From Nitrospirota bacterium (lineage in GTDB: Bacteria; Nitrospirota; Thermodesulfovibrionia; Thermodesulfovibrionales; Dissulfurispiraceae): DNA of 64,000 nucleotides. The stretch is taken from contig CAVPZX010000002.1 of assembly GCA_963710375.1 (NCBI GenBank), positions 576,001-640,000 of the forward strand, written 5' to 3'. The translations under genes and the position numbers were made by a program. A model generated the notes under the pieces. It was not told where the DNA came from and did not search any database. It saw only the letters and a list, made by a program, of their open reading frames with translations. How positions within the stretch are numbered: the stretch's first letter is position 1; each line of letters begins with the position of its first letter. Positions 14,829-46,361 of this stretch are shown here, in pieces.

Positions 14829-15857
14829 ATGAAAAAGAATAATATTGCATACAAGGGACTTGAGCGTAAACTGGAAAGGCTCAATGCAGAGGCTGAGACT
14901 TCTCTGGAATGGATGTTAGGCAAGAGCGACAAAATGAAAGAGGTAATCGAACAGATACGCCGAATCTCGAAGACGGATTTTACAGTCCTGATCCAGGGAG
15001 AAACCGGTGTTGGGAAGTCATTTATTGCCAACATTATTCATAACTTAAGCCGACGTGCTCACCATCCGTTTATAAGAATTGATATGGGAACTATACCCGA
15101 GACCCTTTTTGAAAGTGAACTTTTCGGGTATGAGAAGGGAGCGTTCACAGGCGCTGACAAAAACAGAAAAGGCTATTTTGAGCTTGCAGCCGACGGTGGG
15201 ACCATATTTGTTGATGAACTAGAAAATATGACCCCATATGCACAGAGCAAGTTTCTCACAGTTATCGAGGAAAGGAAAATACATCCCCTGGGAAGCGCCG
15301 AATCAAAGGACATAAATGTCCGCTTTATTTCCGCAACAAACAGGGACATAAAGCAGGCATTGGCGGAAAAACATATCAGGAATGACCTGTTTTACCGTCT
15401 CAGTGAATTTATCATAACTATTCCGCCATTGAGAGAGAGAGTTGATGACATACCTTTTCTCGCTCAGAAATTTCTTATGGAAGCAGAAGAAAAATTGAAT
15501 GCCCCACTGAAGAATTTCAGTGAAGAAATATTTGAAGCTCTCAAGCGCTATCCCTGGCCGGGTAATGTCAGGGAATTAAGAAACATTATTATAAGAAGAT
15601 CTGTGCTCATGTCCCAAAATCAGTCAGTAAAGCTCAGGGACATAGAACTTTTACTCGAGGACAACACGGGAAAGACAGAGTCTATCGATCTGTTGCCGCT
15701 TAAGGAACTTACCAAAATAGCTGTCAGGGATGTTGAAAGAAAGGCAATTAAAAAGGCTTTGGACTTGACAAGGGGCAATAAGTCAAAAGCTGCCTTGATC
15801 CTGCAGGTGGATTACAAGACACTTCTCACAAAGATTAAAGAATACAACCTTTCCTAA
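14829..15857 (+). CDS. sigma54-dependent transcriptional activator (AAA+ and Fis HTH) lacking an N-terminal sensor domain
   Basis: [37 protein letters not shown] and GNKSKAA HTH; only about 30 aa precede the AAA+ domain. Confidence 0.9.
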   Translation: MKKNNIAYKGLERKLERLNAEAETSLEWMLGKSDKMKEVIEQIRRISKTDFTVLIQGETGVGKSFIANIIHNLSRRAHHPFIRIDMGTIPETLFESELFGYEKGAFTGADKNRKGYFELAADGGTIFVDELENMTPYAQSKFLTVIEERKIHPLGSAESKDINVRFISATNRDIKQALAEKHIRNDLFYRLSEFIITIPPLRERVDDIPFLAQKFLMEAEEKLNAPLKNFSEEIFEALKRYPWPGNVRELRNIIIRRSVLMSQNQSVKLRDIELLLEDNTGKTESIDLLPLKELTKIAVRDVERKAIKKALDLTRGNKSKAALILQVDYKTLLTKIKEYNLS

Positions 15858-15952
15858 AGGCAGGTTAAGGTTATGGTAGAGGTTAAGAAAATACAAAAAA
15901 AATTTCGGGTTATATCTTTGCCTCTACCTTAACCTTAACCTATACCTGCTTT
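15857..15952. repeat. Inverted hexamer-repeat hairpin (GGTTAA/GGTAGA), possibly a terminator
   Basis: AAGGCAGGTTAAGGTTATGGTAGAGGTTAAG ... CCTCTACCTTAACCTTAACCTATACCTGCTTT. Confidence 0.7.
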
Positions 15953-15960
15953 TAGTGTTT

Positions 15961-16069
15961 TATGGATTCAATTCCATTAATTATGGGGTAAATTCCATAG
16001 TATACCAAAAGTTTAATTCAAGAAATATCCATTAAATTCAAGAGTAAGTCAATTGGCATTCTTCTTGAT
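15961..16069 (+). promoter_or_regulatory. Candidate activator sites plus sigma54 -24/-12 promoter
   Basis: Tandem palindromes TATGG-N8-CCAT(T/A) at 15961 and 15982. TGGCAT-N5-TTGAT at 16054-16069, where the -12 deviates from TTGC. Confidence 0.5.
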
Positions 16070-16157
16070 GTATGTAACTTCAAAGTCAAACAATCAATGG
16101 CAACCTTTCGAGGCTGTTGTTCCTGAATATGACACTGTCCAACAAGGAGGAAGTTTA

Positions 16158-16409
16158 ATGAGCGCAGGAATTGGCGGTATAGGCAATTTAGGCGGTAACA
16201 TAGGCGGTAATCCAGGCGTGACCCAGGCAACGGCAATACCGAAAGACCCTCTGAACGCTGAGGCACTGAATGGTATTCACCACAAAAAACATAAGGAAGG
16301 AGATATATCGTTTGAGGCCCAGATCAATAACCTTAACAAGGAAAAGGTAGCCGGCATCCAGTCCGGGACGAGTGGAGAGACAGGAACACGTATAAATAAA
16401 TACGTTTAG
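16158..16409 (+). CDS. Small Gly-rich hypothetical protein (83 aa)
   Basis: AAGGAGG RBS before ATG 16158; the protein ends GTRINKYV. Confidence 0.65.
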   Translation: MSAGIGGIGNLGGNIGGNPGVTQATAIPKDPLNAEALNGIHHKKHKEGDISFEAQINNLNKEKVAGIQSGTSGETGTRINKYV

Positions 16410-16427: not shown

Positions 16428-16757
16428 CTAACTGCCAGGCGCCTCAAGAGGATATCCCGCATTTTTCCATCCCTCTACGCCACCGCCGAGAACCTTTACG
16501 TTTTTAAACCCTATCTCCATATATTCGACTGCCCGACCGGCAGCACTTGCCTCCTTGGGTCAAGCACAATAGAAAACAATCTCCTGTTCTCTTGGCATAG
16601 AAGCGACATTACTTTTAAAAGCATTAAAGGAGATGGCACCTTCAAGATGCATATTTCTGAATTTTTCCTCGTCATCATAGGCACATACAAAAATAGCTGT
16701 GCCGGCCAGAACTTTCTTTCTTGTCTCTTCCGGAAGGATTCTTATAGGCTCAATCAT
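16428..16757 (-). CDS. Rhodanese-like selenoprotein (109 aa, in-frame TGA read as Sec66 in FYCAU)
   Basis: GGAGG RBS. After FYCA-TGA (16560-16562) the frame continues PKEASAAGRAVEYMEIGFKNVKVLGGGVEGWKNAGYP to a TAG at 16428, completing a rhodanese domain. Confidence 0.85.
16529..16543 (-). other. Candidate bacterial SECIS hairpin
   Basis: mRNA CUGCC-GGUCG-GGCAG starts 16 nt after the UGA and has G in the first loop positions. Confidence 0.65.
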
Positions 16758-16893
16758 TTTTCTGCCTCCAAAATTACTGTATTTAATCCTCAATTATTAC
16801 AATTATATCACCTATAAAGAACTTAGAACTGCGGAGAGTATTTTGGAATATATAAAAATGATTTATAATCTTCATAGAGAGGATTAATTTATA

Positions 16894-34838: not shown

Positions 34839-35978
34839 TCACTTTTGAGTAGAGGTGCTGATCAGCGGAAAAACATTTTCCTTGATCCATGAAATGACCC
34901 TGCTGACCTCGTTCTTCACTTTCTTTTTTTGCGCCCCTGTTTCCTGATACTCTTTGTCCCGAAGCTTATGGCTCCTGAACCCATCGAGAGGATATTGTTC
35001 CAGGAACGCCTCCGGCAGGGCATTGGGCAGATCGACCTCATTCATAATCGCCCACGCGAGAGTCCATGCTTTGGCAACGTTCGTTACGTCGTATCCTCCT
35101 CCTCCGAGGGCGATCCACCTGGGTGAGAGATCTTTTATCTTCCCGACTACTTCGCAAAAACCGTTTGTCGTGTATTTCAGGTGGGCGAGGGGATCTGTGA
35201 TAAATGAATCGACCCCAAGCTGACTTACAACAATGTCTGGCTTGAACTTCTTGAGCAGCGACGGAACGACCTCCTCGAAGGAATATACAAAGAGCTCATC
35301 GTCGGAGGAAGGGGGCATAGGGATATTCACAGAATATCCCCTTCCTTCTCCTTCGCCGATCTCTGTCTCGAATCCTGTACCTGGGAAAAGGTACAGGCCA
35401 GATTCGTGGAATGATATCGTCAGCACTTTGTCGGTACGGTAAAACGCATCCTGCACGCCGTCACAGTGATGCGCGTCTATATCGATATAGGCTACTCTTT
35501 TCCCTTTTCTTAGTAGAGAGTAAATAACGATCACAGGGTCATTGATGTAGCAGAACCCTGATGCCTTGGCCGCCAGTGCATGGTGGAGACCACCCGAGAC
35601 GTTGAAGGAGATCGGCGCCGCGCCGCTGTCGACGAGCTCGGCTGCCTGAAGAGAAGCCCCTGTCACGAGCCGCGACCATTCGTAGACCCCCTTGAATACA
35701 GGGTTATCACCATAGCCGAGGCCATAATTTTCTACTCCGGGTATCTCGCTCCCATTGTTCACACCGTTCAGCATATCGATGTAATCTCGCGTATGATAAA
35801 GAAGCAGATACTTTTCTTCTGCTGGTATCGCCTGGATAACAGGGACATCTGGGAGAGATAGGAGTCCGTAAGCGTTCATTAGCTCATAAGTGAGTTTAAG
35901 CCTGAATGACCTGAGAGGATGCCCGGCTCCATAGTCATATTTAGCGAAGTCCTCGGAGTAGATGATGGATGTTTTCAT
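34839..35978 (-). CDS. acuC: AcuC / histone-deacetylase family protein
   Basis: GGLHHA, SGFCYIND, DIDAHHCDG, FPGTG, DPLAH and GGGGY motifs; start re-assigned to MKTSII. Confidence 0.9.
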   Translation of the reverse strand: MKTSIIYSEDFAKYDYGAGHPLRSFRLKLTYELMNAYGLLSLPDVPVIQAIPAEEKYLLLYHTRDYIDMLNGVNNGSEIPGVENYGLGYGDNPVFKGVYEWSRLVTGASLQAAELVDSGAAPISFNVSGGLHHALAAKASGFCYINDPVIVIYSLLRKGKRVAYIDIDAHHCDGVQDAFYRTDKVLTISFHESGLYLFPGTGFETEIGEGEGRGYSVNIPMPPSSDDELFVYSFEEVVPSLLKKFKPDIVVSQLGVDSFITDPLAHLKYTTNGFCEVVGKIKDLSPRWIALGGGGYDVTNVAKAWTLAWAIMNEVDLPNALPEAFLEQYPLDGFRSHKLRDKEYQETGAQKKKVKNEVSRVISWIKENVFPLISTSTQK

Positions 35979-45482: not shown

Positions 45483-46361
45483 CTAATCTGCTGGAAGAGG
45501 GATCCTGGACTCACACGGCACCCCGCTCTGGCATAAGCCGCAGGCATAAGCTTCAAACCCGAAATGGGACGTGCAATATTCCTTCATCGCTACCTCTACG
45601 TAAGGCCGGCATTTCAACTTGTCGTGGCCCTGGTCGCTTAAGGCCCCGGCGGGGCACCGGTTGACGCACTTCTTACAAGTCCCGCGACTGAAAAAAAGGC
45701 AATATTCGTGATGGTCTTTATATGGTCGCGGAGTCGGAGGTATCTGAATGCGTGCAACAACAGAACCGCAGCGTACCGCCTTTCCCAGCGGCGTAATCAA
45801 CCCATCGCAAAGGCCAAAGGTCCCAAGCCCCGAAGCATGGGCTGCATGCCGCTCAGACCAGGTTGACGCATAAAGATAGAGTTCTGACATCTTCCACGCC
45901 CATTCGGGTGAAAGCATAGGAGCAACAGCCTCAATTCCGGCGGCCCCGAGAGTATCGACAACATGCTTTCGGAGACTTACGTTTATCTCCTCGCCGAATT
46001 TCCTGGCCCTTGCCCAGCTTTCCGAAGGGTAAGTCGTCTCCTTTTTGTGATCAGCTTTAGTCTTGGCCGTTTGAGGCAAAATCCAGCTTATAACCGTCAA
46101 ATCGCCAGCCCGCACTTCCATTTGTGGAAAAGTCAGGCTGAATATTTCCAATGGGGTCCAGTGGAATAATCCGATATGCTCCTTGAATGCTTGATAAATT
46201 GGATCACCACCGGAAGAGAATCCCACCAGGGGGTCGTCCCATGCCTTGTCGTTTGCCGGATTTTTCAGGGTGTTTTCCGGTGATTTATTGATAAAGTCTT
46301 TTACAATACTTTCAAGCCATCCAGCCGCATCTTTTATTTCGTGGTTTTCCTGCATTTTCAT
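45483..46361 (-). CDS. Epoxyqueuosine reductase / reductive-dehalogenase-like Fe-S protein
   Basis: WSERHAAHASGLGTFG, CKKCVNRCP and CGLCQSGVPC motifs. Confidence 0.8.
   Translation of the reverse strand: MKMQENHEIKDAAGWLESIVKDFINKSPENTLKNPANDKAWDDPLVGFSSGGDPIYQAFKEHIGLFHWTPLEIFSLTFPQMEVRAGDLTVISWILPQTAKTKADHKKETTYPSESWARARKFGEEINVSLRKHVVDTLGAAGIEAVAPMLSPEWAWKMSELYLYASTWSERHAAHASGLGTFGLCDGLITPLGKAVRCGSVVARIQIPPTPRPYKDHHEYCLFFSRGTCKKCVNRCPAGALSDQGHDKLKCRPYVEVAMKEYCTSHFGFEAYACGLCQSGVPCESRIPLPAD

Follow-up and report, generated by a model that had tools for sequence, protein, structure and literature searches.

Rhodaneses carry sulfane sulfur on a cysteine of the active-site loop, and their six-residue loop ends mostly with Arg, Thr, or Ser (PMC8533005, available in part). 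Seven-residue loops of the His-Cys-X5-Arg type handle phosphate or arsenate (PMC6272796, available in part). Rhodanese selenoproteins with selenocysteine (Sec) two residues past the loop cysteine (CxU) have already been catalogued, as form 3 (NCBIfam NF041203, rhodanese_LYCAU) in PMC13188914 and as form 2 of COG0607 in PMC9312934, and a UxU form of a 'rhodanese-related sulfurtransferase' has been described in Olavius symbionts (PMC1976440); these three sources were likewise available in part. In PMC1794560, rhodanese is mentioned in the reference list only. A literature search, with subscription journals mostly outside it, returned no biochemical study of any CxU rhodanese and no description of the subfamily presented here, which is marked by a V-C-A-Y motif (VCAY subfamily). 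Nevertheless, the subfamily may already be among the sequences catalogued in PMC1976440 and PMC13188914, and the catalogue representative TKB26178.1 may be of either the VCAY or the LYCAU type.

The stretch of DNA analysed (the window) comprises 64,000 nucleotides of a Nitrospirota genome assembly that is 98.8% complete. The features of the gene and its surroundings are as follows.

16428..16757, minus strand: CDS of the predicted rhodanese-like selenoprotein, 109 codons/residues, ATG to TAG, read through an in-frame TGA.
16765..16769, minus strand: Shine-Dalgarno-like GGAGG, 7 nt upstream of the ATG at 16757.
16683..16685, minus strand: Cys25 of the V-C-A-Y motif, at the Asp position of the rhodanese D-x-R motif (alignment to VDVRD of BH2092, PDB 3o3w).
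16566..16568, minus strand: Cys64, at the canonical rhodanese catalytic position (alignment); 31 of 105 relatives have TGA here, predicted to be another Sec.
16560..16562, minus strand: in-frame TGA, codon 66, predicted Sec; TGA in 105 of 105 distinct loci, Cys in distant relatives.
16528..16544, minus strand: predicted bacterial SECIS hairpin GCUGCC-GGUCG-GGCAGU, with its apical loop 21 nt past the UGA (folding, covariation).
16053..16409, plus strand: ORF of 118 residues, rich in Gly and Asn and convergent with the selenoprotein gene; neither Pfam nor NCBIfam gave a match.

From the ATG at 16757, which is preceded by the same Shine-Dalgarno-like motif as the ATGs of its relatives, the frame runs through 65 residues ending in FYCA to a TGA at 16562-16560 (codon 66). 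The original prediction was that the ORF called up to this point is truncated and that the frame goes on with a rhodanese C-terminus. This was indeed seen: 43 sense codons, including GFKNVKVLGGGVEGWKNAGYP, follow the TGA and end at a TAG at 16430-16428, and the match of the read-through protein to Pfam Rhodanese (PF00581) spans the TGA, covering residues 29-100 with 39.5 bits (E 8e-10), above the gathering score of 22.2 bits. Not a single letter differs over the gene in contigs of four public runs, which belong to one study and are not independent, as one of them (X1) may be the source of the assembly. The AlphaFold model of the read-through protein has a pLDDT of 94.4, and its best structural match is Escherichia coli GlpE (Z 15.8, rmsd 2.3, 104 residues); Foldseek likewise indicates this fold. 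In the alignment, Cys64 falls on the catalytic Cys of rhodaneses, placing the predicted Sec66 two residues past it, as had been proposed, and Ser71 aligns to the loop-end residue. The active-site loop (C64-S71) thus has eight residues and carries a two-residue insertion relative to 6mxv. The product would be a single-domain rhodanese-fold protein, probably located in the cytoplasm.

The best NCBIfam match of the protein is NF041203 (E 7e-17), at 61.3 bits against a cut-off of 115 and over model positions 53-124 only; in the genome scan it scored 53.2 bits, also below the cut-off, with the Y-C-x-U motif present (FYCAU). The two share a single rhodanese domain, a Y-C-A-U-P-x-E-x-[ST]-[SA] loop, the position of Sec two residues past the catalytic Cys, and a SECIS at the same place. 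However, the five members above the cut-off, found in 5 of 31 related genomes, keep D-x-R where the present protein has V-C-A-Y, and a hydrophobic N-terminal leader, lacking here, is found in the four members whose N-terminus was retrieved. A FastTree analysis of 165 sequences and ~105 columns, which excluded rows having Trp at 64 or 66 and involved no formal test of clades, placed the VCAY family apart from six NF041203-type sequences with a support of 0.99, on a short alignment and with one other domain included. Because of the score below the cut-off, V-C-A-Y for D-x-R, the lack of a leader, and the separate position in the tree, the protein is not filed in NF041203; from these comparisons, the VCAY family is a sister subfamily of the same kind and is not placed inside it. 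UxU members are scattered among CxU members in the tree, suggesting repeated switching between the two forms. The Olavius protein resembles 31 of the 105 close relatives analysed below (metagenome part, the best 80 of 486 matches) in having a second Sec at the position of the catalytic Cys, but the copy in the window is CxU, and the Olavius protein may be of either the VCAY or the LYCAU type.

E. coli GlpE and other single-domain thiosulfate sulfurtransferases share with the protein the fold, the Cys at the catalytic position, and the loop-end Ser, whereas the identity to GlpE is 16%, the loop has eight residues in place of the six found in thiosulfate sulfurtransferases of the GlpE/PspE type, C-A-Y stands for D-x-R, and Sec is predicted; the NCBIfam GlpE model gives 20 bits against a cut-off of 102. 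BH2092 of Bacillus halodurans (PDB 3o3w, 3nhv) aligns without gaps through the long loop (YCWGPACNGATKAA vs FYCAUPKEASAA) and also has a second loop thiol, but its second Cys is at +5 rather than +2, and it keeps DVRD. The Cdc25/ACR2 phosphatases and arsenate reductases likewise combine the rhodanese fold with a longer loop; theirs is His-Cys-X5-Arg, according to the available part of PMC6272796, whereas that of the present protein is Tyr-Cys-X5-Ala (Y63-C64...A70), and Arg occurs at position 70 in 2 of the 60 rows of a wider-family alignment (32-70% identical). Several relatives diverge in architecture. Seven loci (L044, L051, L052, L054, L058, L060, and L061) encode rhodaneses of several domains in which the loop reads C-x-G-x-x-TGA (CxxxxU) and a hairpin follows at an equal distance; in two of them both positions are TGA, and Cys is found instead in L057. 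By motif only, these resemble the catalogued UxxxxU form 5. In two other relatives (P0075 and P0081), Cys-type VCAY domains are fused to longer C-terminal regions, and P0075, from Planctomycetota, bears the name CBS domain-containing protein, which may hint at regulation.

For the comparison at the DNA level, 109 loci were gathered, 29 from genomes and the best 80 of 486 metagenome matches, of which 105 were distinct after removal of duplicates; L023, L024, and L064, copies of the gene in genome G002, and L028, where the domain is Cys-coded and part of a longer protein, were left out. Contig C54 of G002 contains two identical copies of the gene, at 35193-35519 (plus; L039) and 46016-46342 (minus; L064), inverted and ~11 kb apart, representing either a duplication or an assembly artefact. 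Since similarity to the query was the basis for choosing the loci, the following counts describe the close clade only (metagenome part, the best 80 of 486 matches): column 66 is TGA in all of the distinct loci (105 of 105), after which the frame stays open for 33-80 codons, and TGG does not occur there in any of them; codon 64 is TGY in 74, TGA in 31, and nothing else; and column 25 is Cys in all 104 loci that cover it. At the level of codons, the alternation of TGY and TGA at codon 64 is the classic Cys/Sec pattern.

Homologues had been predicted to show Cys or TGA at the column of Sec66. This was correct for the close loci and, in the wider-family alignment, for 29 of the 59 other rows, which have Cys (as does the relative L028), but not for 24 of the 59, which have Ser, Asp, Gly, Thr, Glu, or Phe; the other six have Trp. 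Judging from these substitutions (Ser, Asp, and others in ~24 of 59), the wider family does not depend on Sec at position 66. By comparison, position 64 is kept in 55 and Cys25 in 57 of the 60 rows. The Trp-bearing database relatives are probably cases in which TGA was read as Trp by another code, as the cluster of P0003 itself holds 63-residue members cut at FY. Homologues thus do not generally replace Cys/TGA by Trp, Arg, or Gly, the pattern named beforehand as speaking against a selenoprotein: TGA is found throughout the close loci and Cys in distant rows, and the Trp rows look like misread TGA.

A hairpin, CUGCC-GGUCG-GGCAG, had been placed 16 nt after the UGA, and it begins at exactly this distance. 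In the bacterial SECIS model quoted in the available part of PMC13188914, the loop has 3-9 nt, the stem has 4-16 bp, a G lies within the first two loop positions, the distance from the UGA is 16-37 nt, and the MFE is -7.5 or lower; the hairpin agrees with all four constraints quoted there, with a 5-nt loop, a 5-6 bp stem, GG, a distance of 21 nt, and -10.1 kcal/mol. Its folding energy corresponds to a z score of -1.65, and 15 of 200 shuffled sequences fold as well. The same simple SECIS test is passed by 50 of the 978 long ORFs of the genome that end in TGA, three of these being true Sec sites of formate dehydrogenase (Fdh)-type genes. The hairpin alone is therefore not told from chance, and the case for recoding rests on conservation.

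In the close loci (metagenome part, the best 80 of 486), G26 of the loop is invariant (105 of 105); the wobble base of Ala73, within the stem, is C in 93 and T in 10 and never A or G, while that of Ala70, which is not part of the stem, is unrestricted (A 25, G 39, C 22, T 4). The wobble pairs 21-33 and 24-30 are of the Watson-Crick type in 91 and 100 of 105 loci, respectively, above all 5000 shuffles, which ignore relatedness and so overstate the signal. In the 29 genome loci, 14 doubly changed cells were counted, compared with 6.1 in shuffles, and none of 500 shuffles reached this number (kinship was again ignored, which overstates it); stem pairing was 90%, against 21-60% in slid controls, and two other covariation measures on these 29 loci were not above shuffles. 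No such hairpin is formed by the Cys-coded L028, and one Fdh-type gene of the genome shares the hairpin core GCC-GGUCN-GGC. By its pattern of substitutions, the hairpin behaves as a constrained RNA. An Rfam scan around the gene returned no family at gathering score, and a promoter scan returned no sites; one terminator-like site inside the gene is at chance level.

The gene is flanked by a divergent histidine-kinase gene and by the convergent Gly/Asn-rich ORF, which has no known family, and is thus probably monocistronic. The Gly/Asn-rich ORF is kept beside the selenoprotein gene in three close loci. When 388 neighbouring ORFs from the 109 loci (including the best 80 of 486 metagenome matches) were clustered, the largest common family was present in nine loci, and Pfam assignments to 70 of 122 neighbouring ORFs of 28 loci were scattered over various functions, several of them linked to redox or stress (catalase-peroxidase, OsmC, nitroreductase, flavodoxin, and GrdB-like proteins) and none of them recurrent. 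Since no neighbour recurs, no partner, donor, or acceptor is proposed from the neighbourhood. Elsewhere in the window, a long imperfect inverted repeat (about -44 kcal/mol) lies at 15854-15955, directly after a sigma-54 activator gene; as blastn matched it to 35 places in the genome at 70-94% identity, it belongs to a dispersed family of palindromic intergenic repeats. Its matches to Rfam miRNA families are weak and below the gathering scores.

The best explanation for these data, which we hold with moderate confidence from the sequence comparisons, is a Sec-decoded rhodanese-fold protein with a Cys64-x-Sec66 redox pair. Decoding would take place via the hairpin, SelB, and Sec-tRNA, with SelA presumably present in the organism. 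Given Sec, it is reasonably probable that Cys64, at the catalytic position, would be loaded by a donor with sulfane sulfur (alternatively, with selenium or an oxidant); that the neighbouring Sec66 selenolate would then attack the loaded Cys64, releasing the load or passing it on; and that the Cys64-Sec66 bridge so formed would be re-reduced by a cellular thiol or thioredoxin. As position 64 is kept in most rows of the wider family and position 66 is often lost, Sec66 is read as an accelerator, that is, a rate-enhancing helper that would not be indispensable. The loop-end Ser71 fits the Ser/Thr of sulfurtransferases as defined in the available part of PMC8533005. Against this mechanism, the loop has eight residues rather than the six that define sulfurtransferases in the same source, C-A-Y replaces D-x-R, position 66 has another residue (Ser, Asp, Gly, Thr, Glu, or Phe) in 24 of 59 wider relatives, and no conserved neighbour indicates a donor or acceptor (largest common family, 9 of 109 loci).

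Alternatively, the selenoprotein could employ three chalcogens (Cys25, Cys/Sec64, and Sec66) as a binding or shuttling site for a thiophilic metal or metalloid, for example As(III), Hg, Cu(I), or Zn, and would then not carry sulfane sulfur: in the alignment, it is Cys25 that takes the place of the Asp of D-x-R, and the loop is longer than in sulfurtransferases. From the strand order of rhodaneses, we take the strand that ends at the position of Cys25 to adjoin the catalytic strand of Cys64. Moreover, Cys25 is as conserved as Cys64, both in the close loci (104 of 104; metagenome part, the best 80 of 486) and in the wider family (57 vs 55 of 60 rows). Nevertheless, such a metal site is unlikely, because three of the 60 rows retain Cys25 although 64 and 66 are both lost, as would also be expected of a residue buried for structural reasons, and because the loci have no recurrent metal or arsenic operon context. 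The label 'ArsR family transcriptional regulator' attached in RefSeq to a truncated relative (WP_027715360.1, 65 residues) does not help, as no ArsR domain in Pfam or NCBIfam backs it.

Still less likely is a classical thiosulfate/polysulfide sulfurtransferase or selenium carrier, in which Sec66 would be the primary nucleophile and Cys64 would be secondary. The fixation of Sec at 66 in the whole close clade (metagenome part, the best 80 of 486), in which position 64 varies between Cys and Sec, and GlpE as the closest fold are what would be expected of such a protein, but the rhodanese cradle is built around position 64, and it is this position that the wider family keeps (55 of 60), while it often loses 66.

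With regard to the decoding involved in the preferred reading, a Sec-decoded protein with a Cys64-x-Sec66 pair, the genome had been expected to contain selA, selB, selC, and selD. The last three were identified: a tRNA-Sec gene (selC), which is the only tRNA gene with a TCA anticodon, a selB gene scoring over the cut-off, and a selD gene that itself contains an in-frame TGA and a hairpin. In addition, three molybdopterin oxidoreductase (Fdh-type) genes have TGA in R[VLI]*H together with hairpins. In one of these (contig C9), the Pfam match continues from 47853 in a different frame, which points to a frameshift or a split gene. The relevant positions in the assembly under study (G000) and in the relatives G003 and G007 are as follows.

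G000 C6:108794 (plus strand), C9:46963 (plus strand), C3:118949 (minus strand), and C2:about 371,666 (minus strand): three Fdh-type genes and selD, with in-frame TGA and SECIS-like hairpins.
G000 C2, about 1,070,000-1,072,325: end of the assembly contig.
G003 C3, 884,000-907,000, and G007 C4, 1,546,000-1,568,000: selA block.

selA was not found in the assembly with TIGR00474, PF03841, or tblastn using SelA of eight relatives; SepSecS was not found in the assembly either. selA was found in 26 of the 31 genomes searched, and four of the nine other genomes of the genus also lack it. In G003 and G007, selA lies in a block with hdrABC, folD, folE (G007), rsmG, and mnmG, and the assembly has no orthologue of any of them; genes for a 5-formyl-THF cyclo-ligase-like and a CooC-like protein are also included (names from translations; mnmG and folD were checked by family). 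In both relatives, this block comes directly after the rRNA operon that marks the end of contig C2 in the assembly. mnmG and folD are missing in four of the five selA-less genomes of the genus (three besides the assembly under study).

When runs X1-X4 were compared with the G003 block, selA-covering contigs ~88% identical to G003 were obtained, and the genome's own identity to G003 is 85-89%. Judging by the labels of relatives that are 85-86% identical, the organism is probably a Dissulfurispiraceae-like Nitrospirota. The depths of the selA contigs and the window were 15.5-16.6 vs ~17 in X1, 8.8 vs 6.6-9.0 in X2, 8.1-8.7 vs 3.4-8.7 in X3, and 9.1 vs 4-7 in X4, the last fitting less well. One X1 contig (depth 15.9) has exactly 123 mismatches and 4 gaps relative to G003, the same as contig C6 of the assembly, and this identical count indicates that the run-to-G003 comparison picks up the organism under study. 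No contig in runs X1-X4 joins selA to the assembly. Since the whole selA gene block is missing and depth-matched selA contigs are present in runs that hold the DNA of the window, selA is most likely present in the organism and was dropped from the assembly by a gap. The block seems to be lost repeatedly in binning or assembly next to the rRNA operon. A genome without selABC, which had been named as contradicting the prediction, is thus not what was found: selB and selC are present, and selA is absent from the assembly only, most likely through a gap.

It is accordingly very improbable that the TGA genuinely terminates a selenoprotein gene which recently fell silent because the organism has lost selA, or that Sec is made without SelA. 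The lack of both selA and SepSecS in a 98.8% complete assembly, and of selA in four of the nine other genomes of the genus, would agree with such a history; however, the whole hdrABC-folD-folE-selA-rsmG-mnmG block is without orthologues and adjoins the rRNA operon at the end of C2, selA contigs of matching depth that differ from G003 by ~12% (11-15% for the genome) are present in X1-X3, and selD, the Fdh-type genes, and the rhodanese gene are all intact around their TGAs. SelA-independent synthesis of Sec was rejected, as there is no SepSecS and the gap explanation fits better. Reading of the TGA as Trp or another ordinary residue, or a downstream frame open by chance, is effectively refuted by the DNA-level counts, since the six Trp rows of the wider alignment, which would fit it, look like alternative-code calls, no TGG occurs at the column in 105 loci (metagenome part, the best 80 of 486), TGA serves as a general stop (978 long ORFs), and the genome has a tRNA-Trp(CCA) and, as its sole TCA-anticodon tRNA, tRNA-Sec. 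The recoding first predicted at this TGA is strongly supported by TGA in 105 of 105 close loci, Cys in distant relatives, covariation in the SECIS stem, and the presence of selB, selC, and selD, and we regard Sec decoding of codon 66 as very likely on these grounds.

The suspicion that standard annotation truncates the gene proved right, as 56 of 60 homologue-search matches end at FYCx or FY. The finding therefore corrects a systematic annotation error, and the closest NCBIfam selenoprotein model scores the protein well below its cut-off. It also indicates that '99% complete' bins from this genus can lose selA, and Sec users would then be miscounted. As a tentative and rather doubtful extension, the VCAY rhodaneses may form a widespread and so far uncatalogued selenoprotein subfamily with a three-chalcogen active site (Cys25 plus C/U-x-U) that has left classical thiosulfate transfer for another task, for example persulfide/selenide reduction or the handling of As(III) or soft metals, with repeated CxU/UxU switching and one hairpin serving two UGAs 6 nt apart. 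The small soluble protein, with its natural CxS, CxC, CxU, and UxU versions, is convenient for studying the contribution of Sec to such a loop. The UxU/CxU family likewise raises the question of how one SECIS serves two close UGAs and, if the three-chalcogen reading is true, would allow tandem insertion of Sec in bacteria to be studied in a natural system.
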